DNA from: Nannocystis sp.
GTDB taxonomy: Bacteria; Myxococcota_A; Polyangia; Nannocystales; Nannocystaceae
Direction: 5' to 3'
Assembly (NCBI RefSeq): GCF_016714285.1
Contig: NZ_JADJNN010000012.1
Coordinates: 26,040-90,039, forward strand
Length of the DNA: 64,000 bases
The notes beneath the pieces are model-generated. The model searched no databases. It saw only the letters and a program-made list of their open reading frames with translations, and was not told the DNA's origin. Shown in pieces: positions 1,066 through 64,000 of this stretch. Within the stretch, counting starts at the first letter, position 1. Each line of letters opens with the position of its first letter. A program made the position numbers and the translations under genes.

Positions 1066-1091
1066 TTGCGAGAAGGCCAGGTCCCGGGTGG

Positions 1092-1135
1092 GGCCTGGCC
1101 TTTGGAGCCTGGCCTTTGGGGCCTGGCCTTTGGGT
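1092..1135. repeat. 14 bp tandem repeat x3 (gcctggcctttggR) between convergent gene ends
   Basis: Direct reading: ggggcctggcctttggagcctggcctttggggcctggcctttggg. Confidence 0.8.
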
Positions 1136-1148
1136 CATGTCCTTCGGG

Positions 1149-3413
1149 TCAGCCGCGGGCGCCCGGCCAGGCCGCGGGCGCGGCGACCGGGTCGCGGCGC
1201 ACGGGGTTGCGCGGCCGCTCGTAGCGCGAGCAGAACTTGTCCCACAGGCCGAGCACGCGGTTGGCCTCGGGGTCGCTGAGGCCCTGGGCCAGCGCGCTCA
1301 GCTCGCCGCGCCCGGTGTCGCAGGCCTGCCAGCCCTCGGGGTCGTCCCACGAGCCCTCGACCATGCCGCGACCGGAGGGCTGCGGGCGCTGGGCGAGCAG
1401 CGCCAGGCGGTCGGCCCAGCCGATCAACAGGCGCCCCTTGCGGACGTTGAACGCGTCCTCCTGCAGCACCTCCGCGAGCGTGAAGGCCTGCTCCTCGACC
1501 ATCTGCGTGCCGGTCTCCGGGTCCTCGTACTCGATCGTCAGCATGATCTGGTCCTGCGGGCGCAGCTTGCCGCCGCGGGCCATCAGGTCGGAGAGGAACA
1601 GCTGCGAGGTGTTGGCGAAGTAGTGGATCGCCTGCACGTCCTCCTTCACCACCGAGCTCTCCTCGCCGTAGAACACGTTCATCCGCAGCGAGGGCGGCAG
1701 GTGCAGCTGGAAGTGCACGTCCATCGCCGTGGTCTCGAGCAGCGAGATGAAACGCGCGCCGAACACCGCGTCGACCTCCGCCTCCGAGCCGAGGAACACG
1801 TAGGCCCCCTTGCCGCGCTCGGTCAGCTTGTCGAGCAGCGCGTCGTTGAACTCGCGGCCGACGCCGACGCCCGACAGGCGGATCTTCCGCGAATCGTAGT
1901 ACTTCGAGATCATCGACATCGTCCGCGGGTCGGTGTCGCCGGTGTTGGCCAGCGCGTCTGTCACCAGGACCACCCGGTTGTTGTAGGTCGGCTGGTACGA
2001 CGAGTCGGCCAGCGCGTAGCCCTTGCTGAGCCCGAGGTGCACGTCGGTCGAGCCGCGCGGCTTCATCTTGTCGATCGCCTTCTGCAAGATCTCCGGCTTG
2101 TCGCGCCCGACGACGAAGTTCTCGATCGGGGTGCACTCCTCGTGGTCAAACAGCACCACGTTGACCAGGTCCCCGGTCTTGAGCTGCGAGGTCATCTTGG
2201 TCATGCCGCGCTTCAGGTAGTCCATGCGACCCTCGTCCGACATCGAGCCCGAGCGGTCGACCACGAAGGTGAGGTTGGCGTTGCGCCGCGCCTGCAGATC
2301 GACCGGCCGGCCCTTGATCGCCAGCGCCAGGTTGTAGATGCCCGCCTGGTTCGGATCCGGGGCGATGTCCGCCAGCACCGAGAAGTCGTCCTGCGGGGCC
2401 ACCGGGGCGGTCTGGAACGAGAAGTAGTTGAGCAGCTCGTGCGGCCGGATGTGCTCGACCGGGAGCGGCAAGAACTTCTCGATAGCGAAGATCACCCGCT
2501 GCGCCGACGACAGGCTCATCGTGTCGTCGTTGCTGAGGTAGATCGCTTGACCCCAGTCCTTGTACTGCTCGCGCGGGTCGTCGAGCTGGACCGGCTTCAT
2601 CTCCTCGTCCGCGGCGATGTCCATCGGCGCCGAGGCCGAGGCCGGCTCCTGCGCCGCCTCGCCGGCGGACGGGCGGTTACTCGCCTCCCTCGCTTCCTTC
2701 TTGGCCAGACGATCGGCCTTGCGCTCGGCGCTGCGCTCCGACAGCGAGGTCTTGTCCGCCGGCCGCGGGGGCGCCGGGGACGTGGCAACCGGCGCGCTCA
2801 TCGGCGAAGACATCCCCGCCGACACCTCGGCGGCGGGCGCTGGCCCCGACGCGCGGCCCTTGCCCGCGCTGTCGCCGTCGCTGGCGTCCTTCCTCGGCGG
2901 CGGCGCCGGCTTGTTCGGCGCTGGCGCCCGGGTCGCGGGGTCCGGAGCGCTGGCGCCGTAGCCCTGACTGGACCCGCCGAGCACGCCGCCGCTGCTGCCG
3001 GTCGGCTGGATCGCCGTCGACCCGCCGGCCGAGCCGTACTGAACCTTCTTGTACTTCCCCTGGTAGCCCGTCGGCGGCTTCGGCTTCGGCGTCGGCTGGC
3101 GCGGCCCGCTGGCGATCGGCTGCGGGTGCTCGCCGCCGTAGCAGCGGTCGATGTGGTTGACGAGCTTGGGCAGCGCGTTCAGGTTCGGCGCGGGCGGATC
3201 GACGCGCGTGTGCGCCGGGTGCGGCCGCGGTGAGAACAGGTGCGGCGGCGCCTCGTAGGCGCCCTGGCCCTGGACCAGCAGGGCCCCGTTGCCGCCGCCC
3301 TGGCCCGGATCGACGGTGCCGCCGATCGGCGTGACGGTCGAGCCGGTGCGGCAACCGACGAAGCACAGGGGCAGCGACAGCAGGATCCACTTCGCAATAG
3401 ACGGGGCGTTCAT
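1149..3413 (-). CDS. von Willebrand factor type A (VWA) domain lipoprotein
   Basis: MIDAS motif DRSGSMS (DxSxS). Signal peptide MNAPSIAKWILLSLPLCFVGC. ATG at 3413..3411 preceded by GGAGAC RBS. Long Pro-rich linker. The upstream in-frame extension to 3908 was rejected. Confidence 0.85.
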   Translation of the reverse strand: MNAPSIAKWILLSLPLCFVGCRTGSTVTPIGGTVDPGQGGGNGALLVQGQGAYEAPPHLFSPRPHPAHTRVDPPAPNLNALPKLVNHIDRCYGGEHPQPIASGPRQPTPKPKPPTGYQGKYKKVQYGSAGGSTAIQPTGSSGGVLGGSSQGYGASAPDPATRAPAPNKPAPPPRKDASDGDSAGKGRASGPAPAAEVSAGMSSPMSAPVATSPAPPRPADKTSLSERSAERKADRLAKKEAREASNRPSAGEAAQEPASASAPMDIAADEEMKPVQLDDPREQYKDWGQAIYLSNDDTMSLSSAQRVIFAIEKFLPLPVEHIRPHELLNYFSFQTAPVAPQDDFSVLADIAPDPNQAGIYNLALAIKGRPVDLQARRNANLTFVVDRSGSMSDEGRMDYLKRGMTKMTSQLKTGDLVNVVLFDHEECTPIENFVVGRDKPEILQKAIDKMKPRGSTDVHLGLSKGYALADSSYQPTYNNRVVLVTDALANTGDTDPRTMSMISKYYDSRKIRLSGVGVGREFNDALLDKLTERGKGAYVFLGSEAEVDAVFGARFISLLETTAMDVHFQLHLPPSLRMNVFYGEESSVVKEDVQAIHYFANTSQLFLSDLMARGGKLRPQDQIMLTIEYEDPETGTQMVEEQAFTLAEVLQEDAFNVRKGRLLIGWADRLALLAQRPQPSGRGMVEGSWDDPEGWQACDTGRGELSALAQGLSDPEANRVLGLWDKFCSRYERPRNPVRRDPVAAPAAWPGARG

Positions 3414-3743: not shown

Positions 3744-3778
3744 GCATGTCCCAAAGGACATGTCCATCGGGACATGCA
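3744..3778. repeat. palindromic hairpin element (catgtcc-caaa-ggacatgtcc-atc-gggacatg)
   Basis: Overlapping inverted repeats of a GGACATG half-site in the intergenic region. Same family as the elements at 7811, 34650, 40133 and 40311. Confidence 0.75.
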
Positions 3779-3832
3779 GCAGCGCATCGGCACGGTGACC
3801 GACGAGGTCGATCAGGGCCCAGTACTGCGCGC

Positions 3833-6037: not shown

Positions 6038-7804
<1,767 letters not shown>

Positions 7805-7810
7805 GCTGCA

Positions 7811-7850
7811 CCCAAGGACATGTTCCAAGGGGCATGTCCCAAGGACCATG
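7811..7850. repeat. 13 bp tandem repeat x3 (ccaaggNNNatgt) of the GGACATG palindromic element family
   Basis: ccaaggacatgtt / ccaaggggcatgt / cccaaggaccatg, immediately after the kinase stop codon. Confidence 0.7.
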
Positions 7851-8050: not shown

Positions 8051-10171
8051 ATGACAACGAGAATCTATCTGCTCCTCACGGGTGCGTGTGTGCTCGCCAC
8101 GGCGTGCAGCGACGACGGTCGCGCCGAATCCAACAGCAACACCGATGGCGGCAGCGGCAGCGTCAGCGCCAGCGGCGCGACCGATGCCGACACCGAACCG
8201 GTGCCGACCACCAGTCCGACGACCGACCCGAGCGGCGGCACGCCGGGCACCGCGAGCCAGACCAGCGAGGCGACCGAGGCCACCACCGTCGACCCGAGCG
8301 CGGGCACGGTGATGACCAGCGCCGACACGACCACCGGCGACGACCCGATCGTCGAGGTCGTGATCGATCCGCTCGACGCGATCGTCACCGTGATCGACGG
8401 CCAGATCCCCGCGCCGCTGCAGTACACCGCCAAGGGCATCACCCAGAACAACGTCGAGATCCCGCTCGACGGCACCTGGACCTACGACCGCCTCGACCTC
8501 GCCAGCCTCGGCGGCCAGTCCGGCTCCTTCACCGCGACGGGCTTCGCTGGCGGCAAGGGCACCGTCAGCTTCGACCCCGCCGGCGACCTCCTCCCGGTCC
8601 AGACCTCCGCCACCGTCAAGCTGCAGTACACCAGCGAGCCCGACCCCGTCGACCCCGGCATCAAGGACGGCTTCGGCATGGCCGTCGAGCCCGACCCGGC
8701 GATGGTCCTGCTCTACCCCTACGACAAGACCGTGTTCCCTCGCGGCCTCACCGGCCCGACCGTGCAGTGGAACGGCGGCGCCGCCGACGACCTCTACTAC
8801 ATCCACGTCTACAGCGACTTCTTCGAGTTCAAGGGCTACACCAAGGTCCCGCCGCCCTCGCGCTACAACTTCCCGAAGCTGCCCGCGGACGTGTGGCTCA
8901 AGCTCACCGCCTCGACCGAGGGCCCGGTGACCTTCGACATCCAGCGCTTCGACGGCAACAAGGCCTACCTCGCCAAGACCCAGACCTGGACGATCGCCCC
9001 CGCCAACCTCACCGGCGCCGTCTACTACTGGGAGGTCAACAACGGCAACGTCGTCCGCCTCAAGATCGGCGACCCCGCCCCGCAGCAGTTCATCAACAAG
9101 CCGCCGGGCGTCGCCTGCGTCGCCTGTCACAGCGTCTCGAAGGACGGCTCGCGCATCGCCGCCGCCTTCCACGGCGGCTACAGCCCGTGGAACGTGATCG
9201 AGGCCGCGACCGGCAACGTGCTCTACTTCCCGAACATCGCCTCCGGTTTCCAGGCCATCTCGCCCAACGGCTCGCACGTGCTGTGGGGCCAGTCCGACGA
9301 GACCGGCTCGCTCAAGCTGACGACCTTCGACAACGCCGCCGTGCTCACCACCCTGACCACCCCGGGTGGCAAGCCGGTCCACCCGGCCTGGGCCGGCGAT
9401 CCCAGCCGCGTCGCCTTCGCGCGCAAGACCGACGGCAACTGGCTCGACTTCAACAACAGCGAGCTGTGGACCGCCAACGTCGATCTCATGACCAACAGCT
9501 TCTCGAACGTGAAGCAGATCGTCGACAAGGCCCCGCCGCTCGGCACCACCACCTTCCCGACCTTCGCCCCCGACTCCGAGTGGATCGCGTTCAGCCGCCT
9601 CAACCAGGCCCGCACCCGCGGCGCCGTCACCGAGGTCTGGCTCACCAACTTCGACGGCAGCGCCCAGATGCGCCTCGACAAGGCCAACGGCCTCGGCATC
9701 ATCGAGCCCGGCCAGGACCAGACCACCTACGAGCCCACCTTCCTCCCGGTCTCCGTCGGCGGCTACTTCTGGCTCATCATCGGCAGCGAGCGCAAGTACG
9801 GCAACACCCTCACCGACACCAACCCCGGCAGCCGTCGCAAGCAGCTGTGGGTCTCGGCGATCGACGCCAACATCCAGCCCGGCCAGGACCCGAGCCACCC
9901 GCCGTTCTGGCTGCCCGGTCAGGAGCTCAACAACTCCAACATGCGCGGCGAGTGGGCGCTCGCCCCGTGCAAGCAGATCGGCGAGGGCTGCAACGCCGGC
10001 TTCGACTGCTGCGGCGGCTTCTGCTACCCGCCCGCCGAGGGCGAGGAGCCGACCTGCAACGACATGCCCGACAGCTGCTCGCACATGGGCGACGCCTGTG
10101 AGGTCGACGCGGCCTGCTGCGAGGGCGAGGGCAGCTGCATCGGCGGCTTCTGCTCGATCATGCCCGGCTGA
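8051..10171 (+). CDS. secreted lipoprotein: TolB-like beta-propeller region, single CxxCH motif, C-terminal Cys-knot tail
   Basis: GAGG RBS then ATG at 8051. Signal peptide LLLTGACVLATAC. CVACH (CxxCH) motif. TolB/WD40-like FAPDSEWIAFSR segment. C-terminal CNAGFDCCGGFCYPP...CEGEGSCIGGFCS. Confidence 0.75.
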   Translation: MTTRIYLLLTGACVLATACSDDGRAESNSNTDGGSGSVSASGATDADTEPVPTTSPTTDPSGGTPGTASQTSEATEATTVDPSAGTVMTSADTTTGDDPIVEVVIDPLDAIVTVIDGQIPAPLQYTAKGITQNNVEIPLDGTWTYDRLDLASLGGQSGSFTATGFAGGKGTVSFDPAGDLLPVQTSATVKLQYTSEPDPVDPGIKDGFGMAVEPDPAMVLLYPYDKTVFPRGLTGPTVQWNGGAADDLYYIHVYSDFFEFKGYTKVPPPSRYNFPKLPADVWLKLTASTEGPVTFDIQRFDGNKAYLAKTQTWTIAPANLTGAVYYWEVNNGNVVRLKIGDPAPQQFINKPPGVACVACHSVSKDGSRIAAAFHGGYSPWNVIEAATGNVLYFPNIASGFQAISPNGSHVLWGQSDETGSLKLTTFDNAAVLTTLTTPGGKPVHPAWAGDPSRVAFARKTDGNWLDFNNSELWTANVDLMTNSFSNVKQIVDKAPPLGTTTFPTFAPDSEWIAFSRLNQARTRGAVTEVWLTNFDGSAQMRLDKANGLGIIEPGQDQTTYEPTFLPVSVGGYFWLIIGSERKYGNTLTDTNPGSRRKQLWVSAIDANIQPGQDPSHPPFWLPGQELNNSNMRGEWALAPCKQIGEGCNAGFDCCGGFCYPPAEGEEPTCNDMPDSCSHMGDACEVDAACCEGEGSCIGGFCSIMPG

Positions 10172-18422: not shown

Positions 18423-19301
18423 TCAGCGGTAGAAGTGCAGCCGGATCGGCGGTGAGACGGCGCGGATCGGGCGGCCGTCGGGGTCCTTCGCCGGGGTGAA
18501 GCGCGTGCGGCGAGCGCAGCGGATCGCGGCGGCGGCGAAGCCGTCGCCCGGGTCCTGCACGACCGTGCTGGACTCGACGCTGCCGTCGGCGCGCACGGTG
18601 ACGCGGATCGTCGCGGTCTGCTCGTCGATCGGGAGCTCGCTCGCCTCGTCGGGCCAGGGACAGTTCCACTCGTCGGTCGGCAGCGACACCGGGGCGGCTC
18701 GGCTCGGCTTGTTCGGCGTCGGTGGCGGTGTCGGTGACTCGGCGGGCGGCGGGGCGCCGACCTGCTTCGTGGGCGTCGTGCCGGTGCCGCCGGGGCTGGT
18801 GGCTCCGCCGGCGTAGGCGCTGCCCTGGCCCTCGACGAAGACCTCGCCGGTGAGGTCGAGCGGGGCGCCAGGGGCCGACACGATCTTGCCGGCGCGGGCC
18901 GGGGCGGCGCCGACTTTGAGCCGCACGCGCGGCGCGGGCTCGCTGGGCGGCGGCGTCGCGGAGGGCGTGGTGTCGGGCGCCAGGGCCGGTGGAGCGGCGA
19001 CGGGTGATGGCTCCGGGGGCTTCGGCGGGGCGAGCTCGACGATCTCGACGCGCGTGAGCTCGTCGTGGATCCGCGAGGCCAGGTCGGCGCTCCAGGCCTC
19101 GAGGCTCGGCTGCATGCCGACGATCCACACGCCGAGGGCCAGGTGCGCGAGCCCGGCGATCAGCGCGGCCGGCAGGCGTCGACGCGGCGCGGCGCGGCCG
19201 GGGCCGAACACCAGGTCGACGATGCGCGGGCTGTCCGCGGGGACAGGTGCACCTGGCGCGGAGGACAGGTCCGCGGGGACAGGTGCCTCGCGCTCGCTCA
19301 C
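18423..19301 (-). CDS. tonB: energy transducer TonB
   Basis: N-terminal TM anchor, Pro-rich spacer and C-terminal TonB domain. Last gene of the exbB-exbD-tonB operon. Confidence 0.85.
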   Translation of the reverse strand: MSEREAPVPADLSSAPGAPVPADSPRIVDLVFGPGRAAPRRRLPAALIAGLAHLALGVWIVGMQPSLEAWSADLASRIHDELTRVEIVELAPPKPPEPSPVAAPPALAPDTTPSATPPPSEPAPRVRLKVGAAPARAGKIVSAPGAPLDLTGEVFVEGQGSAYAGGATSPGGTGTTPTKQVGAPPPAESPTPPPTPNKPSRAAPVSLPTDEWNCPWPDEASELPIDEQTATIRVTVRADGSVESSTVVQDPGDGFAAAAIRCARRTRFTPAKDPDGRPIRAVSPPIRLHFYR

Positions 19302-22226: not shown

Positions 22227-24968
22227 TCAAAAGGACAGGGTGAGGGTACCGAGGACGCTGAGCGGCGGACCGGCGGCGAAGTGGCGCGCGGGCAGGCGCG
22301 AGGGCACGGGGGTGGTGCCCCAGTCGGACACGAAGGAGTAGACGCTGGCCGCGTAGCGGCGCGCGAGCAGGTTGTAGGCCTCGACGCCGAGCTCGATCCA
22401 CGACCAACGCAGCGACGCGGAGGCGTCGAGCAGGTACAGGGGATCGGAGCTTTGGCCGTAGGGGAGCGGGCGCGCGGACAGGTAGTTGAAGCCGCCGCCG
22501 AGGCGCATGGCGAGCGGGTGAGCGCCGAGCTGCACGAGGTCCTTGCTGACGCCGAGGTCGAGGCGCACGACCACCGGCGGCACGTAGGGCAGCAGCTGGC
22601 CCGCGACGTAGGCGGGGTTCGGGTCCTCGACCGTGGCCGGCGGCGGGGCGGTGAGGATCGCGTGCACGTAGGTGACCGAGGTGGAGACTTGCAGCCACGG
22701 CCACGGGCGGGTCTGCAGGGCGGCGACCACGCCGCTGCGACGGGTCGGGCCGATCTTCTCGAGGCGGCCCTCCTCGGGGTCGAAGGCGAGGTCCTGGGCG
22801 AGGAAGGTGCCGTAGCCGGCGGCCGTGAGCTCGACGGGTCGGCGCCAGCGCGGGGCCAGGCGCACGCCGCCCTCGACGCTGTGCACCTTGGTGAAGGGGG
22901 CCCGCTCGCCCTCCTCGAGCTGACGCGCCTGCGGTGAGCGGTAGCCCTGGCCGTAGGCGACGAAGGTCTTGAGCCACGGCAGCGGCGTGACCTCGAGGGC
23001 GACGCGCGGGCCCGCGGCGACGCCGGTGGCGGTGCGGCGGTAGCCGACCAGGTGCGAGGCGACCTGGTAGGGGGCGATGAAGTTGCCGAGGTGATCGTCG
23101 ATGTCGTAGTGCAGGACGTCGGCGCGGGCGCCCCCGCGCAGCTGCACGTACTTGCCGAATCGCAGCTCGAGGTCGGCGAAGAGGCCGACGTCGGTGGCGA
23201 GGATCTCGGCGTCGACGCGGTGGTCCCAGGTCTCGTTGCTGGGCGCCTGCAGCAGGTTCTGGGCCTGGCGGACGCGGTGGATGCGGGCGCTGCTGCCGAG
23301 CTCGAGGGTGGCCGCGAACCACCGCGCGGGCCGCCACCAGCCTGTCCGATGGGACAGGCGAAAGCCGCCGCCGAGGTCGCGGTTCTGCTGCTCGATCAGG
23401 TCGCCGCGGCCGACCCAGGCGGGCATGACCATGCTGCGCTGCAGGTAGCCGGTGAAGTTCTCGCGGCTGTGGAAATCGACCAGCGCCGCGTGGGCGGCGA
23501 ACAGGGTGCGGCCGCCGGTCTCGCTGCGGTGCGTGAGCTCGAGCCCGAGTTGGCCGCGCGCGGCCGAGGCCGACTGGGCGCCGGCGCCGGGGTCGGGGTA
23601 GCGGTCGTAGAAGCCGACGCGGCCGGCCTCGACGTCGTCGTTGCGCAGCACGCCGGCCATGCCGGCGCGGGCGGCGTGGGCGGCGACCATCAGCTTGCCC
23701 GCCAGGCCGCCGGGGCCGGTGAAGGCGAACTGGCCGAGGCCGGTGCCGGACAGGGCGCCGCGGTTCATGCCGAAGCCGCTGCTGCGGCGGATCGCGGCGG
23801 CGGCGAAGGTCTCCTCGGACTGGCCGCGCGGGGCCCACATGGCGAGCTGGCGAAAGGTCCCGAAGGAGCCGCCGGTCGAGCGCAGGAGGAAGCCGCGCTG
23901 GGCCACGCCGAGGTCGAAGTCGATGCTCCCGGCGACCGCGAAGTCGCCCTGGTGCGGGTCGTACACGCCCTCGGTGACGCGGATCGATCGCACCACTTCG
24001 GGCAGGATGAAGTTGAGGTCGGCGTAGCCCTGGCCGTGCAGGTGCGAGATCTGGTTGATCGGTGCGCCGCCGACGGTGAACTCGATGTCCTGGCCGTGGG
24101 CCGCGTTGAAGCCGCGGAGGTAGATCTCGTGCGCGACCGCGTCGCCCTCGGGCCGCGAGACGTACACGCCGGGCGCCCGCGTGAGCATGTCGCCGCTGCT
24201 CTGCTTCGGCGCGGCGTTCAGGACCTCGGGGCCGAGCACGAAGTCGCTGGCGGCCCGCGGCGGCGGCGGGCGCCGGCCGTGGGTGGAGACCTCGATCACG
24301 CCCTCGTCGCCCGGGGACGGGGCCGAGCCGGCTGAAGGGACAGGTTGCGTGGAGCTGTCTGAAGGGACAGGTGCGACGGGGGCCGGCGCGCTGGCCGTGG
24401 GGACAGGTGCGGATGTGCTGGCTGAAGGGACAGGTTGCGTGGGGCTGTCTGAAGGGGCAGGTGCGACGGGGGCCGGCGAGCTGGCCGCGGGGACAGGTGC
24501 GGATGGGCTGGCTGAAGGGACAGGTCGGGTGGGAGCTGGCGAGCTGGCCGCGGGGACAGGTGACGCGGGGATGTCTGAAGGGACAGGTGCGGGAGGAGCC
24601 GGCTCGGCGAGCGGCGGCGGGAACACGAAGGGGACGCGGATCCGGGCCGCGACGGGGGCGCCGCCCTGGGTCGCGGGGGTGAAGCGCCACTGGCGGACCG
24701 CGGCGATCGCCGCGGCGTCGAAGGCCGGGCCGGCGCTGCTGGCCACCGTCACCTCGCCGACGCCGCCGTCGACGCCGACGGTGACCAGCAGCTCGACGCG
24801 CTGCGGGCTGCTGCTGGCCGCGGCGAGCGGGTAGGCGGCCTCCACTTGCTGCACCGGGCGCGGCGCCTGCACGGCCGGGGCCGCGGCGGCGCTGCGGGCC
24901 GTGAGGGCGGCGAGGAGCAGGGCGGCGCCGCAGCGGACGCGGCGCGCCGGTGTCAGGGCCGGGGGCAT
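22227..24968 (-). CDS. TonB-dependent outer-membrane receptor with N-terminal TonB-C-like domain and Pro-rich tandem-repeat linker
   Basis: Signal peptide, plug and barrel, and C-terminal ...TLTLSF ending in Phe. The N-terminal segment resembles the TonB C-terminal fold. DNA at 24300-24600 is tandemly repetitive and encodes (PVPSAS/PAPVAPxPSDS) units. Confidence 0.85.
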   Translation of the reverse strand: MPPALTPARRVRCGAALLLAALTARSAAAAPAVQAPRPVQQVEAAYPLAAASSSPQRVELLVTVGVDGGVGEVTVASSAGPAFDAAAIAAVRQWRFTPATQGGAPVAARIRVPFVFPPPLAEPAPPAPVPSDIPASPVPAASSPAPTRPVPSASPSAPVPAASSPAPVAPAPSDSPTQPVPSASTSAPVPTASAPAPVAPVPSDSSTQPVPSAGSAPSPGDEGVIEVSTHGRRPPPPRAASDFVLGPEVLNAAPKQSSGDMLTRAPGVYVSRPEGDAVAHEIYLRGFNAAHGQDIEFTVGGAPINQISHLHGQGYADLNFILPEVVRSIRVTEGVYDPHQGDFAVAGSIDFDLGVAQRGFLLRSTGGSFGTFRQLAMWAPRGQSEETFAAAAIRRSSGFGMNRGALSGTGLGQFAFTGPGGLAGKLMVAAHAARAGMAGVLRNDDVEAGRVGFYDRYPDPGAGAQSASAARGQLGLELTHRSETGGRTLFAAHAALVDFHSRENFTGYLQRSMVMPAWVGRGDLIEQQNRDLGGGFRLSHRTGWWRPARWFAATLELGSSARIHRVRQAQNLLQAPSNETWDHRVDAEILATDVGLFADLELRFGKYVQLRGGARADVLHYDIDDHLGNFIAPYQVASHLVGYRRTATGVAAGPRVALEVTPLPWLKTFVAYGQGYRSPQARQLEEGERAPFTKVHSVEGGVRLAPRWRRPVELTAAGYGTFLAQDLAFDPEEGRLEKIGPTRRSGVVAALQTRPWPWLQVSTSVTYVHAILTAPPPATVEDPNPAYVAGQLLPYVPPVVVRLDLGVSKDLVQLGAHPLAMRLGGGFNYLSARPLPYGQSSDPLYLLDASASLRWSWIELGVEAYNLLARRYAASVYSFVSDWGTTPVPSRLPARHFAAGPPLSVLGTLTLSF

Positions 24969-33509: not shown

Positions 33510-34772
33510 TCAGATCGCTGGTGTCGAGGTGCCGCGCGGGTGCACGAGGTTCAGGCGCTTGAGCAGCGGCCAGGAGACGACGACGCCGGGGCCGCGGCGG
33601 CGCCACAGCCAGTCGTGGACCAGGCGCGGCGGGCCGGCGGCGCTGTAGACCGCGGCCCGGTCGCCGACCAGGGCGAGCGGGACGATCACGAGGTCGTGGG
33701 TCTGCGGCGCGCGCGGGTCCCAGGTGGCGTGCACGAGCTCGACCGCGAGGTGGCCGCTGGCGGCCAGGTGGGCGCGGGCGCGGGCGAGGTGGCCGGCGTC
33801 GGCGTCGACGATCGTGACGCGGGCGGCTGGCCACACGCGGGCCAGGGCGAGGGCGGTGCGCGGGAACAGGCCGCCGCCGATGACGGCGATCCGGACGGGC
33901 CTTCGGGACAGGTCGGATGGGACATGTCCTGGAGGACAGGTGGCGGGATCGTGGGACAGGTCGGAGGGGACATGTCCCGGGAGACAGGTGGCGAGCTCGG
34001 GCATCAGCCGCGCGAGGGCGCGGGCGTGGCTGGCGACCAGGCGGGCTTGCAGGCGCGGGCTGCGGAGGGCGAGGCGCTCGAGGCCCCCGAGGCCGCGGGC
34101 GAGGGCGCTGGCGAGGGCGAGGTGCAGGCCGCGGAGCACCGGGGGCCAGGGGCTGCGCGGGGCGTCGGCGAGGCGGCGGGCGGGGAGGGCGGTCCAGTGG
34201 GCGCCGGGCCAGCGGTGGTGCTCGGCGTGGAGGCCGTCGTTGAGCCACAGGAGGTTGTAGAGGCGGCCGTCGTGGGAGACGCCGCCGCGAGCGGCGAAGG
34301 GGTGCTCGCCCAGGCCCTGGAGCTGGCACAGGCCGAGGCCGAGGAGGAAGCCGGGGAGGTAGACGAGGAGCAGGAAGCGGGGGGCGAGGACGGCGAGGGC
34401 GAGCCAGAGGTGGGCGACGGCGGCGAGCTCGAGGCTGCCCTGGAGGCCGAGGCGGAGCGGGCCGGGGGCCTCGCCGCGGTGGTGGGCGAGGTGGCGGGCG
34501 CGCCAGATCGTCTGCGGCACGCCGGTGAGCAGGGACAGGGCCAGCGAGAACAGGCGGTTGGGCAGCCGCGCCCGGAACACCGGGGTGTGCAGGTGGATGT
34601 GCGCGGCGGTGTTGGAGACCCACCAGACGACCAGGCCGATCGCACAGGTCGCAAGGGACATGCCCCAGAGGCCATGTCCCGAGAGCCAGACGGTGAGCGG
34701 GGCGAGCAGGGCCAGGAGGGCCGGGAGCGCGACGACCCAGGCGTCGCGCGGGCTGTGGCGCCAGCGCGGCAC
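33510..34772 (-). CDS. fatty acid desaturase-like membrane protein (His boxes HLAHH, HAEHH) fused to a C-terminal Rossmann-like domain, with in-frame repeat insertion
   Basis: GTG start 3 nt after the upstream stop. Three histidine boxes. C-terminal VRIAVIGGG. The interdomain peptide TCLPGHVPSDLSHDPATCPPGHVPSDLS is encoded by palindromic repeats. Confidence 0.65.
   Translation of the reverse strand: MPRWRHSPRDAWVVALPALLALLAPLTVWLSGHGLWGMSLATCAIGLVVWWVSNTAAHIHLHTPVFRARLPNRLFSLALSLLTGVPQTIWRARHLAHHRGEAPGPLRLGLQGSLELAAVAHLWLALAVLAPRFLLLVYLPGFLLGLGLCQLQGLGEHPFAARGGVSHDGRLYNLLWLNDGLHAEHHRWPGAHWTALPARRLADAPRSPWPPVLRGLHLALASALARGLGGLERLALRSPRLQARLVASHARALARLMPELATCLPGHVPSDLSHDPATCPPGHVPSDLSRRPVRIAVIGGGLFPRTALALARVWPAARVTIVDADAGHLARARAHLAASGHLAVELVHATWDPRAPQTHDLVIVPLALVGDRAAVYSAAGPPRLVHDWLWRRRGPGVVVSWPLLKRLNLVHPRGTSTPAI
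33899..33998. repeat. two about 45 bp copies of a gggacaggtcgga-gggacatgtcc-(t/c)gg(a/g)agacaggtggc element, in frame within a CDS
   Basis: Seen directly. Contains perfect palindromes GGGACATGTCC. Confidence 0.8.
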
Positions 34773-34775
34773 GGG

Positions 34776-35840: not shown

Positions 35841-37190
35841 ATGCGCACCCCGGAGGCCCTGGAGACGCTCGTCGAGTACGGCATCGTCGAGGAGGTGCTG
35901 CGCCCGCTGATGAGCGGCAAAGAGGCGCAGATCTTCCTCGTGCGATCGGCCGGCGAGCTGCGCGTGGCGAAGATCTACAAGGACGCGGAGCAGCGGTCGT
36001 TTCGCCAGCGCAGCGACTACACCGAGGGCCGCACGACCCGCAACACGCGCGACCGCCGGGCGATGGCCAAGCACTCGCGCCACGGCAAGGCCCAGGACGA
36101 GGCGGCCTGGCGATCGGCGGAGGTCAACGCGATCTATCGCCTGAGCGAGGCGGGCGTGCGCGTGCCGGTGCCGTACCACTTCATCGACGGCGTGCTGGTG
36201 ATGGAGCTGGTCCGCGATCACGAGGGCCAGCCGGCGCCGCGCCTCGGCGACCTGGTGTACGCGCCCGCGGTGGCCCAGCAGATCTTCGACATCCTGCTCG
36301 CTGCGGTGGTGCGGATGCTCTGCGCCGGGGTCGTGCACGGCGATCTGTCCGAGTTCAATGTGCTGATGGCCGCGGACGGGCCGGTGGTGATCGACTTCCC
36401 GCAGGCGGTCGACCCGGCGAGCAACCTGAGCGCGCGCAAGCTGCTCATCCGCGACGTCGATAATCTCCACACTTTCCTCGGCCGACACTTTCGCGGCTAC
36501 CGCCCGCTGCCCTACGCGCAGGAGATGTGGGAGCTGTATCAGCAGAACCTGCTGACCCCGGAGACGCGCCTGCGCGGGCGGGTGTCGGCGTCGCAGCGGC
36601 CGACGAATACGTCGGAGGTGCTGGCGCTGATCGGCGACGCGGAGCGCGAGCAACGGCGGCGCAGCGGGGCGGCGCCGCAGGGGGCGTCGCAGCGGGGGTC
36701 GCCCTCGGGGCCGCGCGGGTCGCAGGGGTCGCAGGGTCAGCAGGGTTCGCGGGGTCCGCAGGGATCGCGGGCATCGCAGGCTCCGCGGGCATCGCAGGCT
36801 CCGCGACAGCAGCCAGATCGTGGTGGGCCGCGCGGGCCGAAGGTCGAGGTGGTGGTGAAGCGCGGCGGGAGCTCGCAGCAGGACGCTCGACGCGACGAGG
36901 CCGCGAGGCCGGCGCAGGAGCCGCGGCGTGACGGGGCTGCGGCGCCGGCTCGCCAGGAGCCGCGACGCGACGGGGCTGCGGCGCCGGCTCGCCAGGAGCC
37001 GCGACGCGACGGGGCTGCGGCGCCGGCTCGGCAGGACGCGCGGGCCGGGGTGCGTGAGGCGAAGGCGCCAGTACAGGATGCCCAGGGCACGGCGGCGGCG
37101 CAGGACCCCAGCGCGGACGAGGGCGCGTCGCGACGGCGGCGACGTCGGCGCTCGCGCGGATCGGCGGCCAGCGACGCGCCGGGGGCCTGA
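35841..37190 (+). CDS. RIO-type atypical serine protein kinase with repetitive charged C-terminal tail
   Basis: RIO motifs VHGDLSEFNVL and IDFPQAV. Confidence 0.8.
   Translation: MRTPEALETLVEYGIVEEVLRPLMSGKEAQIFLVRSAGELRVAKIYKDAEQRSFRQRSDYTEGRTTRNTRDRRAMAKHSRHGKAQDEAAWRSAEVNAIYRLSEAGVRVPVPYHFIDGVLVMELVRDHEGQPAPRLGDLVYAPAVAQQIFDILLAAVVRMLCAGVVHGDLSEFNVLMAADGPVVIDFPQAVDPASNLSARKLLIRDVDNLHTFLGRHFRGYRPLPYAQEMWELYQQNLLTPETRLRGRVSASQRPTNTSEVLALIGDAEREQRRRSGAAPQGASQRGSPSGPRGSQGSQGQQGSRGPQGSRASQAPRASQAPRQQPDRGGPRGPKVEVVVKRGGSSQQDARRDEAARPAQEPRRDGAAAPARQEPRRDGAAAPARQEPRRDGAAAPARQDARAGVREAKAPVQDAQGTAAAQDPSADEGASRRRRRRRSRGSAASDAPGA
36930..37040. repeat. 39 bp tandem repeat x about 3 encoding (RDGAAAPARQEPR)
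   Basis: gacggggctgcggcgccggctcgccaggagccgcgacgc repeated. Confidence 0.85.
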
Positions 37191-38158: not shown

Positions 38159-38239
38159 CTCGGCGGCGAGGCGACGAGCGAAGCGAGCCTGGCCCGAAGG
38201 CCAGGCTCGCTGGTTGGCTGTCCCGGGGGACAGGTGAGC

Positions 38240-39982
38240 TCAGCGCTGGGGCAGGCGCGGGAAGCCGCCGTCGCCCTGGCCGGGGGTCTTGGCCGGGGGC
38301 GGCGCGGCCTGGTCGACGCTGCGGCGGACGATGTCGCCGGCGACGTCGCGGCCGCCGAGGCCGAAGGCGAGGGCCATGGCCAGGCACAGGCCGCCGAACA
38401 GCAGGCCGAAGGCGAGCAGGACGAACTCGGGGGCCACGTCGAGCTGGTGGACGGCCATGGTGAAGGCGAAGACCAGCACGGCGTAGCGGGCGAACTCGCC
38501 GAGCCAGCGGCTCTGGGTCTCGCCGGGGGCGGCGCTGCGGGCCCGCACGAGGTCGCGGACGTAGTTGCCGATCGCCACGCCGACGCCGACGATCGCGACC
38601 GCGACGAGCACGTGCTTGAGCAGGTAACCGAGGAAGCCGTTGAGGTAGTGCGACCAGGTGTCGAGCTCGAGGTTGTCGCAGGCCTGGGCGGTGGCGAGGA
38701 GGATCACGGCGAGCTGGACCAGGAAACCGACCAGCTCGCTCGGGCGCTCGAGGTTGTCGGCGCGCGGGCTGAGGGCGGGGAAGCCGAGGCGGGCGGCGAG
38801 GTCGTCGAAGCCGAGGTTCTTGAGGGTGGCCGCGGCGGCGCCGCGCAGCAGGCGGCCGATGAACACGCCGGCGAACACCACCAGGGCGGACACGGCGAGG
38901 TTCGGGAGGAGCAGCCAGAAGCGGGCCATCATCGCGGTGAGCGGGCCGCTGAGGGTGACGAGGCCGAGCTCGTTGAGCGCGGCGACGCTGGTCTGGAACA
39001 CGATGAAGGCCATGGCGAGCAGGCCGACGACGGCGCTCGGGCGGGTGTGGCCGAACAGCTTGCCGAGGCCGAGGCGGTCGACGAGGCGGTTGAAGCCGAG
39101 GCTGTCGAGGAGGTTGTGGAGGACGACGCGGACGACGCGGCCGAGGACGTAGCCGGCGAGCACGAGCAGGGCGGCGAAGCCGAGCGAGGGGACGACGGCG
39201 ATGACGCGGTCGAGGGCGTTGTGCAGCGGCTCGGAGATCGGGGTGATGTGGAGGGCATCGAAGGCGCCAGCGAGGCCGGCGACCATGACGAGCCAGAACA
39301 CGATGTCGCCGGCGGCGCGCGAGAAGGGCTTGGCGTCGGCGGCGGGGGCGTCGGCGGCGGGCTGGTCGGGGCTGCTGAGCTCGGCGAAGCGGGCGTCGAG
39401 GCGCAGGCCGGAGATCGCGGCGCCGACGAGGCGGCTGAGGATGAGGCCGGCGAAGTAGGCGATGACGACGATCAGCGCGGCCTTGCCGACCAGCGGGAGG
39501 GCCTGGATCACGGTGTCGACGAGGCCCTGGATCGGACCGGCGGCCTGGCTGAGGCCGGCGAACTGCAGCACGCCGACGACGACGAGCAGCATCAACATGT
39601 AATAGACGACGCGGGCGATGGCCCGCTCGAGCGCGTTGGGCTGGCTCGGCTTGCCGGCGGGCTGGCCGTCGCTGAGCACGCCGAGGTGCAGCTTGGCGGC
39701 CAGCTTGTTGTCGAGGCTGGTGCGACACAGGCCGCGGTACACGGCGAAGGAGATGAGCTTGGCGACCAGCCAGCCGCCGAGGAAGAGCAGCAGCGAGAGC
39801 AGCACCTGCTTGCCGACGACGAGCGCGTCGCTCGAGAGCAGGTCCTGGACGGAGTCCCACCAGGTCGGCCCGCTCGGCGCGCCGGGGCGAGGTACGGGCG
39901 CCGGGGTGGCGGCGTGGGCGAGGCCCGAGGTCCATGCGGACGCTCCGAGCAGCAGGGTCAGGACACATCGTTGCAGCTTCAC
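38240..39982 (-). CDS. polytopic membrane protein with repeated conserved-TM-helix modules (MscS-associated type)
   Basis: GTG start and signal peptide. Multiple paired TM helices with an ...LGFxxL... pattern. Confidence 0.6.
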   Translation of the reverse strand: MKLQRCVLTLLLGASAWTSGLAHAATPAPVPRPGAPSGPTWWDSVQDLLSSDALVVGKQVLLSLLLFLGGWLVAKLISFAVYRGLCRTSLDNKLAAKLHLGVLSDGQPAGKPSQPNALERAIARVVYYMLMLLVVVGVLQFAGLSQAAGPIQGLVDTVIQALPLVGKAALIVVIAYFAGLILSRLVGAAISGLRLDARFAELSSPDQPAADAPAADAKPFSRAAGDIVFWLVMVAGLAGAFDALHITPISEPLHNALDRVIAVVPSLGFAALLVLAGYVLGRVVRVVLHNLLDSLGFNRLVDRLGLGKLFGHTRPSAVVGLLAMAFIVFQTSVAALNELGLVTLSGPLTAMMARFWLLLPNLAVSALVVFAGVFIGRLLRGAAAATLKNLGFDDLAARLGFPALSPRADNLERPSELVGFLVQLAVILLATAQACDNLELDTWSHYLNGFLGYLLKHVLVAVAIVGVGVAIGNYVRDLVRARSAAPGETQSRWLGEFARYAVLVFAFTMAVHQLDVAPEFVLLAFGLLFGGLCLAMALAFGLGGRDVAGDIVRRSVDQAAPPPAKTPGQGDGGFPRLPQR

Positions 39983-61085: not shown

Positions 61086-63635
61086 CTATCGGCCGCGGAG
61101 GGTCTGGGCGATCTTCAGCACATCCGCCAGCACCCCGGCCGCCGTGACGGCACCGCCGGCCCCGGCGCCGCGGACGACCAGCGGATATTCTTCATATCGT
61201 TCGGTCGTGAATGCCACGAATGCCTCGGCGCCCTTGAGGGTCGCGGCGGGGTGGTCGGGGGCGACGTCGATCGGGCCGACGCGGACGCGGAACTCGCCGG
61301 TGTCGGGGGCGAGGTCGATGCGGGCGAGGTATCGCAGGACCCGGCCGCGGGCCTTGAGCTCGGCGAGGCTGGCGGCGAAGGTGCTGTCATAGTCGGCGAG
61401 GCCGGTGAAGAAGCGCTCGAGGTCGTCCTCGGCGAGCAGGTCGCTGTGGACCAGCGGGTGGACGTGGATCTGCGCCAGCTCGAGGGTGAGGCCGAGCTCG
61501 CGGGCGAGGATGAGGGCCTTGCGGGCGACGTCGAGGCCGCTGAGGTCGTCGCGCGGGTGGGGTTCGGTGTAGCCGCGCTGGCGGGCCTGGCGGACCGCCT
61601 GGGAGAGCGGGACGCCGCGCATGACCTCGCCGGCGATGTAGCCGAGCGAGCCCGAGAAGGAGCCCTCGACGCGGTGGACGCGGTCGCCGGTGCGGACGAG
61701 GTCGGCGAGGGTGGCGATGACGGGGAGCGAGGCGCCGACAGTGGTCTCGTAGCGCCACGCTGCGTGGGCGCTGCGGGCCGCGGCGCGCAGCTGTCCGTCG
61801 GGACCTGTCCCGAGGGTCAGGGGCTTCTTGTTGGCGCTGACGACGTGGATCCCGCGGGCGAAGGCCTCGGCGTAGACGGGGCCCATGCCGTCGGCGGCCG
61901 TGCAGTCGACGAGCACGGGGGCGGGCAGGCGCCGCAGGCGATCGAGCAGCGGGGTGAGGGCGGTGAGGGTGTCGCTGCTGGCGAGGGCGGGGGCCTCGGC
62001 GAGGTGGGCCTGCCAGCGCCCGAGCTCGAGGCCCTGAGGCTCGAACAGGGCGCGAGCGCGGTCGGCGAGGCCGACGACGCGGAGGGCGATGCCGTGGTGC
62101 TTGCGCAGCGCGGCCTGCTGTTGCTGGATCTGGGCCAGCAGCTGGGCGCCGACGGTGCCGTGGCCGAGGATCAGGAGGCTTATCTCCTCGTGGGCGAAGT
62201 TGAAGGCGGCGTGGACGGTGCGCACGGCGAGGGCCGTCTCGCCGCCGTCGATGGCGCAGGAGATCGAGCGCGAGCTCATGCCCTGGGCGATCGCCCGCAC
62301 GGGCACGCCGACCTGACCGAGCGCGCGGAAGAACTGGGCGGCGGCGCTGCGGGGATCCATGCGCTCGGCGACGAGGGTGAGCAGCGTGATCGGGGCGCGC
62401 ACGCCGGGGCTGTCGACCTCGCCGCGGGCCCGCTCGAGCGCGAGCTCGGCGTCGATCGCGGCGCTGGCCTGCTCGGCGGACTCCTGCGGGATGACGACGG
62501 CGACGGCCTGGCCGTGGGCGGCCTGGTTGGCCATCCACACGGTGATGCCGGCCTGCTCGAGGGCTCGCAGGACGCGGGCGCCGACGCCGGCCTCGTGGCT
62601 GATCCGGCGCCAGCGGAGGTCGAGCAGGGCGAGCTTCTCGAGCGAGGTGACGCAGGTCGGGCCGGCCGCCTCGGCGCCGCGCTCGTCGATGCGGGTGCCC
62701 TCGGCGTCGGGGTCCATGGTGCTGCGGATCCGCAGGGCGATCCGTCGCTCGATGAGCGGCACCATGGTCCGCGGGTGGAACATGCGGGCGCCGAAGTTGG
62801 CGAGCTCGAGCGCCTCCTGATACGACATGCGGGCGATCGGGTAGGCGTCGCGGAGGATCGTCGGGTCGCCGGTCATGACGCCGGGGACGTCGGTCCAGAT
62901 CTGGACCTCGGCGGCTCGCAGGGCGCTGGCGAGGAGGGTGGCCGTGTAGTCGGAGCCGTTGCGGCCGAGGGTGGTGCTGCGGCCGTCCGGGGTGGCGCCG
63001 AGGAAGCCGGTGTGGACGGCGACGACGTCGCCCCAGCCGGGCCGGAGCGCGGCGAGGCGGTCGTGGCTGGCGTCCTGATCGACGAGGGCGGCGCCGAAGC
63101 GGTCGTCGGTGACGAGCCAGTCGCGGGCGTCGACGAACACGGCGGGCAGGCCCGCGAGCGGGAGCAGGGCGGCGAGGATGCTGGCGCTCAGGCGCTCGCC
63201 GAAGGAGAGCACGAGGTCGAGGGTCTGCGGGGTGCACTGGCGCAGGAGGGCGACGCCGGTGAGCACCTGGCGCAGCGGGAGCAGCAGCGAGGTGACGTGG
63301 GCGGGGATGTCGGGGTGCGGCGCGCGGGCGTCGCTGGGATCGCTGGCGCTGTCGGTCTCGCTGCTGCGGCGCAGCAGCTCGCGCAGGGCGCCGCGGCTCG
63401 TGTCGATCGCCAGGCCGGCGACGCGGTCGAGGATCGGGTCGGCGGCCAGGACGTCGCCCTTCGCGGCGACCCGGGCGGCGTCGATCAGCCAGTCGGTGGT
63501 GTCGCCCATGGCGGAGACGACGACGGCGATCGGGCCGAGGGCCCGCTCGCGGGCGATGAGGTCAGTGACGCGGATCAGGCGGTCGGCGGCGCCGACCGAG
63601 GAGCCGCCGAACTTGAGGACGCGGAGAGGTGTCAT
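61086..63635 (-). CDS. thrA: bifunctional aspartokinase / homoserine dehydrogenase
   Basis: N-terminus MTPLRVLKFGGSSVG with ACT and HSDH domains. 849 aa. Confidence 0.9.
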   Translation of the reverse strand: MTPLRVLKFGGSSVGAADRLIRVTDLIARERALGPIAVVVSAMGDTTDWLIDAARVAAKGDVLAADPILDRVAGLAIDTSRGALRELLRRSSETDSASDPSDARAPHPDIPAHVTSLLLPLRQVLTGVALLRQCTPQTLDLVLSFGERLSASILAALLPLAGLPAVFVDARDWLVTDDRFGAALVDQDASHDRLAALRPGWGDVVAVHTGFLGATPDGRSTTLGRNGSDYTATLLASALRAAEVQIWTDVPGVMTGDPTILRDAYPIARMSYQEALELANFGARMFHPRTMVPLIERRIALRIRSTMDPDAEGTRIDERGAEAAGPTCVTSLEKLALLDLRWRRISHEAGVGARVLRALEQAGITVWMANQAAHGQAVAVVIPQESAEQASAAIDAELALERARGEVDSPGVRAPITLLTLVAERMDPRSAAAQFFRALGQVGVPVRAIAQGMSSRSISCAIDGGETALAVRTVHAAFNFAHEEISLLILGHGTVGAQLLAQIQQQQAALRKHHGIALRVVGLADRARALFEPQGLELGRWQAHLAEAPALASSDTLTALTPLLDRLRRLPAPVLVDCTAADGMGPVYAEAFARGIHVVSANKKPLTLGTGPDGQLRAAARSAHAAWRYETTVGASLPVIATLADLVRTGDRVHRVEGSFSGSLGYIAGEVMRGVPLSQAVRQARQRGYTEPHPRDDLSGLDVARKALILARELGLTLELAQIHVHPLVHSDLLAEDDLERFFTGLADYDSTFAASLAELKARGRVLRYLARIDLAPDTGEFRVRVGPIDVAPDHPAATLKGAEAFVAFTTERYEEYPLVVRGAGAGGAVTAAGVLADVLKIAQTLRGR

Positions 63636-63641
63636 GCGGGA

Positions 63642-63724
63642 GGGACAGGGCGGAAGGGACAGGGCGGAAGGGACAGGGCGGAAGGGACAGGGCGGAAGGG
63701 ACAGGGCGGAAGGGACAGGTGAGG
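63642..63724. repeat. 14 bp tandem repeat gggacagggcggaa x5 plus a partial copy, 6 nt upstream of the thrA start codon
   Basis: Seen directly. On the coding strand it is CCUGUCCCUUCCGC, pyrimidine-rich. Confidence 0.9.
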
Positions 63725-63768
63725 TGCGCGGGCGCGGGACGGGGGGCGTCGAGAGGGTTTGCGAGGCC

Positions 63769-64000
63769 TAGTCGGCGAGGGCGCGGGCGAGGTCGGCGAG
63801 CAGGTCGTCGGGGTCCTCGATGCCGAGGCTGAGGCGGACCAGGTTGTCGCGGATGCCGATGGCGAGGCGCTGCTCCGTGCTGAGCTCGTAGAAGGACATG
63901 AGGGCGGGCTGCTCGATGAGGCTCTCGACGCCGCCGAGCGAGGGGGCGATGCGGGCGATCTGGCAGCGGTCGATGAAGCGGCTGGTGCGGGCCTCGTCGC
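63769..64000 (-). CDS. Cys/Met-metabolism PLP-dependent enzyme (cystathionine gamma-synthase / O-acylhomoserine sulfhydrylase family), 3' part only
   Basis: C-terminus ...GGVESLIEQPALMSFYELSTEQRLAIGIRDNLVRLSLGIEDPDDL*. Continues beyond the window. Confidence 0.75.

Follow-up and report, generated by a model that had tools for sequence, protein, structure and literature searches.

What can a short, pyrimidine-rich tandem repeat do when it fills the gap between two co-directional genes and abuts the start codon of the second? The question is raised by a 64,000 nt stretch of a Nannocystis sp. genome (Myxococcota_A; assembly GCF_016714285.1, contig NZ_JADJNN010000012.1, positions 26,040 to 90,039), referred to here as the window, in which a metB-like gene and thrA are separated by a spacer that holds a 14 nt tandem array. 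The array belongs to a dispersed family of 14 bp repeats and is not a locus-specific device. Its origin is ordinary, namely the amplification, within an intergenic spacer, of a short repeat that is dispersed in the genome; its physical character is unusual, and raises the possibility that it serves as an unstructured leader for thrA translation.

The array at the metB-like/thrA junction

On the mRNA (minus) strand the array reads (CCUGUCCCUUCCGC)6 and adjoins the thrA AUG. Tandem Repeats Finder (TRF) assigns it a period of 14, 6.0 copies, 98 % matches and a score of 161; in this register five perfect CCTGTCCCTTCCGC units are followed by one CCTGTCCCTCCCGC unit with a single T>C change, and the thrA ATG (63635–63633) is located immediately 3′ of the last unit. 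The original prediction, made from the sequence of the window, used a register in which the final CCUGUCCC core stops 6 nt short of the AUG, and it was right about that gap and about the pyrimidine richness of the mRNA strand: the array is 58 % C, 27 % U, 14 % G and 0 % A. The repeat it described is confirmed by TRF, although with 6.0 copies (five perfect units and one variant) in place of 5.5, and its range of 63636–63768 turns out to be the whole 132 nt intercistronic spacer (63636–63767; 58 % C, 16 % G) together with a single nucleotide of the stop codon of the metB-like gene. Only the AUG-proximal 84 nt (63636–63719) belong to the array. With up to 2 mismatches allowed, its motif occurs 11 times against 1.5 expected. 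Homologous arrays are found at the same place in independent assemblies from other samples, thus the array is not an assembly artefact.

The predicted minimum free energy (MFE) of the array is 0.0 kcal/mol, versus −33.4 ± 7.6 for other 84 nt segments of the same sequence. It is the least structured of 6088 such segments as well as the most C>G-skewed and the most pyrimidine-rich 84-mer, and no tract of the window has a stronger C>G excess, (C−G)/length being 0.44. Likewise, it is predicted to be unpaired when folded in context. The predicted mean probability of being unpaired, P(unpaired), from −20 to +10 is 0.62–0.77 for array-bearing thrA genes versus 0.42 ± 0.09 for other called genes on related contigs. 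The thrA gene of the window, with a P(unpaired) of 0.71 and no Shine-Dalgarno (SD) sequence, fits the descriptors of an SD-independent, structure-poor initiation region.

That no SD sequence precedes thrA had been predicted, and the last 18 nt before the AUG (CCGCCCUGUCCCUCCCGC) indeed contain no purine-rich SD. The accompanying suggestion that the array replaces a recognisable SD, as something out of the ordinary, is not supported. Related loci are cited below by L numbers; on the related Nannocystaceae contigs L207, L213, L214, L216 and L217, an SD-like 4-mer (GGAG, GAGG or AGGA, at −18 to −4) precedes only 25 of 69 genes (36 %) with automatically called starts, and the ancestral junction appears to have been a 4 nt ATGA/GTGA overlap without any spacer. 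Since 64 % of these genes are without an SD, an SD-less thrA is normal for the lineage. A TANNNT hexamer is present 5–10 nt upstream of the start in 9 of the 69 genes (13 %) versus 0 in an internal control, which suggests that leaderless mRNAs are frequent in Nannocystaceae. For thrA itself a leaderless mRNA was ruled out, there being no TANNNT and no A at all upstream. A CT-rich insulator that acts as an anti-SD or sequesters the SD was likewise rejected, as no SD is present and the CCUCC at −8 to −4 equals the anti-SD, not its complement.

The earlier rejection of a thr-type leader-peptide attenuator is upheld by the absence of Thr and Ile codons from the array. Its three frames read PVPSALSLPPCPFR; with no A, ACN and ATH codons are impossible in any frame, and no ATG, GTG or TTG is found in the 132 nt spacer. 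Attenuator hairpins with a U-tract terminator were also rejected, given the MFE of the array, its unpaired state in context and the absence of a terminator-like site.

Pfam and NCBIfam matches agree with the gene identities first proposed. ThrA contains AA_kinase, ACT_9, NAD_binding_3 and Homoserine_dh domains, and scores 759 bits against the NCBIfam equivalog for aspartate kinase/homoserine dehydrogenase (AK-HSD) I (cut-off 726) and 503 bits against AK-HSD II, under that model's cut-off; its start, MTPLRVLKFGG, is fixed by homology, and a protein 100 % identical to it is known from a Nannocystis sp. metagenome-assembled genome. The metB-like gene, which ends with the TAG at 63770–63768, encodes a Cys/Met-metabolism pyridoxal phosphate (PLP) enzyme (Cys_Met_Meta_PP) of the cystathionine gamma-synthase family, and its full-length 395 aa orthologue in L084 falls under every NCBIfam equivalog cut-off. 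In Escherichia coli metBL, a PLP enzyme gene is followed by an aspartokinase–homoserine dehydrogenase gene. Here too a Cys/Met PLP gene precedes a bifunctional aspartokinase–homoserine dehydrogenase gene on the same strand, but the downstream enzyme is of the ThrA type and the junction has a repeat array. A promoter and terminator scan of 63300–64000 found no promoter-like or terminator-like site, and an array without any A cannot hold a −10 element; we take thrA to be an internal cistron. In the window and in L084 the upstream TAG shares the reading frame of the thrA ATG, but the spacers of L086, L081 and L082, of 149, 85 and 73 nt, do not preserve this frame; stop-codon read-through or an N-terminal extension was rejected on these grounds. 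Just 5′ of the metB-like start, a sequence (CGCGACCCT...GTG) is kept in L207 (8631–8720), L213 (8386–8485) and L082 (about 1200–1233). No Rfam riboswitch was found at this conserved block; it may represent a leader element that has so far escaped recognition.

The junction in related genomes

Orthologous loci were collected by a genome scan and exact-protein look-ups, and a neighbour-joining tree of ThrA was built. Nine Myxococcota loci with the same gene pair (L001, L011, L012, L023, L025, L064, L069, L216 and L217) have a 4 nt stop–start overlap, ATGA or GTGA. In the tree these overlap loci belong to the sister clade, to one more clade and to the outgroups, and arrays are confined to one Nannocystis clade (Table 1). 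As the array occurs in this one clade only, with overlaps elsewhere including the outgroups, it is on these comparisons a derived insertion, which would have broken translational coupling between the cistrons. The more distant L213 carries five hairpin-type family members in a 282 nt spacer at the same junction (9742–9953), and L214 has a 38 nt C-rich spacer with no repeat. The simplest history would start from overlapping genes, with a single insertion before the array clade diversified and a separate colonisation in the lineage of L213.

Table 1. Spacers between the metB-like gene and thrA in the array-bearing clade. Unit identity is the mean to the window; thrA DNA identity refers to the first 900 nt
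Locus	ThrA	Spacer (nt)	Array	Unit identity	thrA 5′ DNA identity
Window	100 %	132	6 units		
L084/L085	same 90 % cluster	156	6 units, with variant units	0.95 (L084)	0.96 (L084)
L086	same 90 % cluster	149	4 + 2.8 units, split by duplicated metB 3′ end		
L081	88 % aa identity	85	6 units filling whole spacer	0.85	0.87
L082/L083/L218–L221	87 % aa identity	73	5 diverged units	0.74 (L082)	0.88 (L082)
L207–L212	80 % aa identity	92	5.6 degenerate units (CMTKNNC TTTCRGA)	0.57 (L207)	0.81 (L207)
L002	79 % aa identity	80	2.5 units		

In L086 (2352–2500) the array is interrupted by an approximately 43 nt duplicate of the 3′-terminal codons of the metB-like gene (CTGCTCGCCGGCCTCGCCCGCGCCCTCGCCGACCAGG), which points to a segmental duplication that took in the junction. 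In L018 (1686–1819), another Myxococcota metagenome-assembled genome, the 130 nt metB–thrA spacer contains a different repeat (GTCATAGG and CCTATGAC copies); as this repeat is unlike the array, the junction has been colonised by unrelated repeats more than once.

Turnover of the units is evident across the clade. The consensus of 24 distinct units is CCTGnnCnTTCnGn, yet the half of the unit that is retained varies by lineage, being the core in L082 and the tail (TTTCRGA) in L207. The units diverge no more slowly than the 5′ DNA of thrA (Table 1), which argues for a constraint on composition and against a sequence-specific binding site. Additionally, units are more alike within a genome than between genomes, which indicates within-array homogenisation by concerted evolution. 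Common to all arrays are the 14 nt register, pyrimidine richness and low structure, with a length near 80 nt in most lineages. Every orthologous spacer is predicted to be less structured than its own background, with a fraction of only 0.000–0.025 of background segments equally unstructured or more so.

The same comparison bears on the suggestion that the array is a phase-variable or copy-number-tunable element modulating thrA translation initiation within populations, which is very unlikely. A near-perfect array (98 % identity) can in principle slip, and copy number between species runs from 2.5 to about 7; however, spacers are stable across independent samples of three related species. L084 and L085 have identical spacers; L207–L212, six contigs from six samples, have the same spacer length and one single-nucleotide polymorphism; and L082, L083 and L218–L221 are identical in this region. 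Metagenome consensus assemblies would hide minority variants, and the comparison as a whole is thus not exhaustive. The window and L084 both have 6 units at 4 % DNA divergence, though three of the units differ. Nor does the 14 nt unit offer an on/off mechanism: contingency loci have their repeat in an open reading frame (ORF) or between −35 and −10, and this array is intercistronic with no promoter-like site. The cross-sample comparison thus lends the phase-variable repeat no support, and as a lone locus the minisatellite is an ordinary intergenic repeat without evidence of switching. Its copy number could tune expression on evolutionary time scales.

A dispersed family of 14 bp repeats

Cores of the form C[AC]TG[TG]CC at exactly 14 bp spacing occur as 15 pairs at 7 loci of the 64 kb window, versus 0.04 in shuffles, and the general family unit is CMTGKCC-YYNS-GGA. 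Neighbouring units give rise to GGAC[AC]TGTCC near-palindromes or to 7 bp stems with 4 nt loops. The 8-mer CCTGTCCC is present 23 times versus 3.6 expected. Hairpins of TGTCC-N3-6-GGACA number 8 versus 0.16 expected (about 50-fold), and rank first among 30 half-sites of equal composition. Hairpin relatives of the form C[AC]TGTCC-N4-GGACA[GT]G are found at 3747, 3761, 19232, 23343, 30107, 33925, 38219 and 40312; their stem sequence is conserved and their loop variable, and some are directly 3′ of stop codons, e.g. 38219–38240. Placed relative to genes by frame-specific plots of third-position G+C (GC3), most family copies are located in non-coding gaps or at gene junctions (Table 2). The thrA array is a one-armed variant, in which the GGA that pairs with the next core is replaced by CGC, leaving direct repeats only.

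The literature searched contains no account of repeats of this kind from Nannocystis or any other myxobacterium. An Rfam scan of 135 kb gave nothing at gathering score, with two sub-threshold chance matches near the locus. A likeness of TGTCC to the DnaA box or the Pho box was dropped, with only 5 nt in common and the wrong spacing.

Table 2. Location of the thrA junction features and of other family members within the window
Feature	Position	Strand	Context or basis
Tandem array, 14 nt x 6.0, (CCTGTCCCTTCCGC)5 + CCTGTCCCTCCCGC	63636..63719	−	TRF and sequence
Non-repeat C-rich 48 nt distal spacer	63720..63767	−	Partly alignable with longer distal part in L084/L085
thrA, bifunctional aspartate kinase/homoserine dehydrogenase I, 849 aa	61086..63635	−	Pfam and NCBIfam
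3′ end of metB-like gene, runs off window	63768..64000	−	Translation and Pfam PF01053, E=3e-22
CCTGGCC TTTGGNG x3 + CATGTCC, 14 bp period	1089..1151	+	Convergent 3′/3′ intergenic gap
CATGTCC CAAAGGA CATGTCC ATCGGGA CATG, overlapping GGACATGTCC palindromes	3745..3781		Non-coding gap
Family member, 14 bp x 2.7, degenerate core (TRF)	7811..7846		7 nt past plus-strand gene stop at 7804
TGA-N14-CCTGTCC CCGCGGA CCTGTCC ... CCTGTCC CCGC GGACAG	19240..19283	−	Co-directional gene junction
Two 48 bp blocks, three 14 bp units each	33906..33988	−	In frame inside ORF 33510–34775
CATGGCC TCTGGGG CATGTCC CTTGCGA CCTGTGC	34642..34679	−	Family member

By analogy with known repeat systems, the array behaves most like mycobacterial interspersed repetitive units (MIRUs) and its relatives in the window like repetitive extragenic palindromic (REP) elements, although it departs from both in defining features. 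In MIRUs, according to the 1997 work of Supply and colleagues, small ORFs overlap at their ends with the genes on either side. In contrast, the array unit has a length of 14 nt, which is not divisible by 3; it lacks A as well as start and stop codons, a promoter-like site was not found, and the seven array spacers (Table 1) keep no consistent frame. What is similar is the occurrence of direct tandem repeats at several loci and between operon genes, as in the mycobacterial senX3–regX3 spacer and here at the metB–thrA and 19240–19283 junctions, with unit number dependent on lineage (PMC4213456). MIRU units are 46–100 bp, and those of senX3–regX3 have promoter activity (PMC4213456). With REP elements and the bacterial interspersed mosaic elements (BIMEs) the family has in common short, dispersed, mostly extragenic and clustered copies (7 loci with 14 bp-spaced cores, 8 hairpins), often just past stops, with a conserved stem and a variable loop. 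The palindrome is present in other family members but not in the thrA array, whose repeats are direct only, with the complementary arm missing and no predicted structure; a 14 bp register and tandem amplification are not REP features.

Family units are also found within coding sequence. ORF 33510–34775, on the minus strand, has a histidine-box, fatty-acid desaturase-like membrane domain and a Rossmann-type RIAVIGGG domain, joined by two in-frame 48 bp blocks of family units that encode ATC[LP]PGHVPSDLS x2; this may be a gene fusion made by the 14 bp repeat. A fusion of TonB_C, Plug and TonB-dependent receptor domains (ORF 22227–24968, minus strand) contains a Pro-rich PVPS linker at 24330–24603, with 27/63/90 bp repeats in which CCTGTCCC occurs eight times. 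This segment was rejected as a second regulatory copy, as the 11-mer it has in common with the thrA array is coding there (PVPS).

In a metagenome scan for CCTGTCC-N7-CCTGTCC-N7-CCTGTCC, the matches listed were mostly (CCTGTCC)n heptamer microsatellites and unrelated 14-mers; about eight of those listed, of high G+C, resemble the Nannocystis family. The heptamer microsatellites and CCTGTCC-based 14-mers such as CCTGTCC CCTGACT and CCTGTCC CCTGTAA are found in L087–L166, from many environments, on contigs of 35–76 % G+C and often at contig ends.

The window, at 66–76 % G+C, contains other tandem repeats (88 TRF rows, e.g. 39 bp x 3.9 at 36888–37036 and 108 bp x 2 at 57828–58035). Its GC skew is negative to about 16 kb and then positive, tracking gene orientation with a C-rich coding strand; the change near 16 kb was for this reason not adopted as a replication origin.

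Candidate roles of the array

The role tentatively preferred here, at somewhat less than even confidence, is that of an unstructured leader for SD-independent initiation of thrA translation, which builds on the predicted folding of the array. A family element landed in the metB-like/thrA junction in the ancestor of one Nannocystis clade, separating the cistrons by 73–156 nt with loss of the ATGA/GTGA translational coupling. The junction version has largely lost its complementary arm (GGA to CGC or CGA in the sub-clade of the window), leaving an A-free, G-poor, C/U-rich mRNA tract unable to fold in a 72 % G+C genome. Such a tract may hold the thrA start region single-stranded, so that the 30S subunit, probably by way of protein S1, would initiate de novo without an SD and in this manner substitute for the lost coupling to metB. 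Under this scheme composition, absent structure and a length of about 80 nt would matter and the exact unit sequence would not, and copy number would shift slowly over evolutionary time with no phase switch. Local absence of structure is reported to be necessary and sufficient for SD-independent initiation (PMC3121790). The locus resembles the SD-independent regions with a local structure minimum described by Scharff et al. 2011 in having no SD, an AUG predicted to be unpaired and many SD-less genes around it; it differs in that the unstructured stretch is an inserted repeat array of 84 nt and not a local dip. We infer S1-mediated or standby-type initiation as part of this scheme, and the unfolded character would likewise be the reason the insertion was tolerated or kept.

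Several points weigh against the leader. That thrA is translated from it is an assumption, and the accessibility is a thermodynamic prediction. The overlap-type L216 is also accessible, at 0.63, so an array is not required; the L213 spacer, with five hairpin-type units in 282 nt, is structured, and the unfolded state is therefore not universal. The gene starts behind the SD census are automatic calls. Additionally, an unstructured, C>G, untranslated tract of about 80 nt also defines a site for Rho loading, whose effect on thrA expression would be to reduce it and not to support it, and a harmless neutral insertion would look alike.

Of these, Rho loading is the main rival, possible though on balance doubtful. 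The 84 nt array in the untranslated spacer would act as a Rho utilization (rut) site and recruit Rho between the cistrons, such that thrA transcription would depend on prompt translation initiation, or thrA would be set lower than the metB-like gene through polarity or attenuation; the six 14 nt units could place one YC dimer per Rho protomer. Described rut sites span the Rho ring with 60–80 nt, have 12–13 nt between clefts and follow [(YC)N9-13]n (PMC6144790), and CU-rich tracts serve as rut elements in cfa (PMC12691595). The array has every sequence feature used for rut sites: it is 84 nt long, untranslated, C-rich (58 %), G-poor (14 %) and unstructured, its C>G excess is the highest of the window, and its regular YC dimers match [(YC)N9-13]6 exactly as (YC)N12 x6, a pattern found in all seven orthologous arrays. 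It is suggestive that most lineages keep a length near 6 units (73–96 nt) while the units themselves turn over, although the near-constant 6 units may simply be inherited, and L002 has only 2.5. However, the same pattern is common, at about 3.5 per kb in E. coli (PMC6144790), and is trivially matched by C-rich tracts where coding strands are C-rich. To place a strong terminator entry site just 5′ of a biosynthetic gene with no promoter of its own would carry a cost. Rho specificity in Myxococcota may differ from that of E. coli, and natural rut sites are without consensus and are not exact tandem repeats. A joint reading, which seems rather improbable, would have the undescribed Nannocystis family colonise junctions, uncouple cistrons and supply in-frame Pro/Ser-rich linkers, with the one-armed six-unit metB–thrA version retaining its length of about 84 nt as a phased Rho platform, in which each protomer would bind a unit with its YC dimer, and/or as an S1 landing pad, and so regulating intra-operon ratios.

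It is also unlikely, although not strongly so, that the array is neutral DNA, a dispersed repeat that inserted and was expanded by slippage at a permissive junction, and that persists because precise excision is improbable and the harm small. Unit drift is about as fast as expected of unconstrained DNA, the L082 and L207 arrays are decaying (their units are 0.65 and 0.74 identical within the array), no array is needed in the sister clade or the outgroups, and the family is also located in 3′/3′ gaps and coding linkers. Yet drift in a 72 % G+C genome should bring back G and structure, and all seven array lineages keep the 14 nt register, pyrimidine richness and very low structure, with a count near 6 despite turnover; the complementary arm of other family members is missing in the sub-clade of the window. 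Sequence-specific sites for a DNA-binding protein (GGACATGTCC-like), an RNA-binding protein or a G-rich small RNA pairing with CCUGUCCC appear highly improbable. The core CCTG..C is the best conserved part across the 24 distinct units and is common to palindromic members in likely promoter gaps (e.g. 3745–3781), but L207 has a degenerate core with TTTCRGA kept and L082 the reverse, so that no consistent motif emerges; moreover, proteins binding DNA in tandem would find sites 14 bp apart out of step with the helical repeat, there is no Rfam match, and the palindrome half is absent from the array. The template strand, (GGGACAGGGCGGAA)6, has twelve G3 tracts that could form up to three G-quadruplexes impeding RNA polymerase or replication, with G3-N3-G3-N5-G3-N3-G3 present three times in the window and in L084. 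This is extremely improbable as the role of the array, for there are zero such motifs in L081, L082, L207 and L002, limiting them to the sub-clade of the window, and the G-rich strand, being the template, is base-paired to RNA while it is transcribed.

If the unstructured leader is real, it would show how a very G+C-rich bacterium, in which nearly every sequence folds strongly, keeps a start codon accessible by means of a pyrimidine-only repeat. It would also illustrate how an operon whose genes were translationally coupled can be converted to independent initiation by a dispersed repeat. Should the array instead load Rho, it would be a natural, near-idealised rut site with six units in phase, which could serve as a model substrate and could mark intra-operon attenuation in bacteria other than enterobacteria. 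In both cases the 14 bp family is an unannotated feature with consequences for the assembly of Nannocystis genomes and for the calling of gene starts and operons in them.

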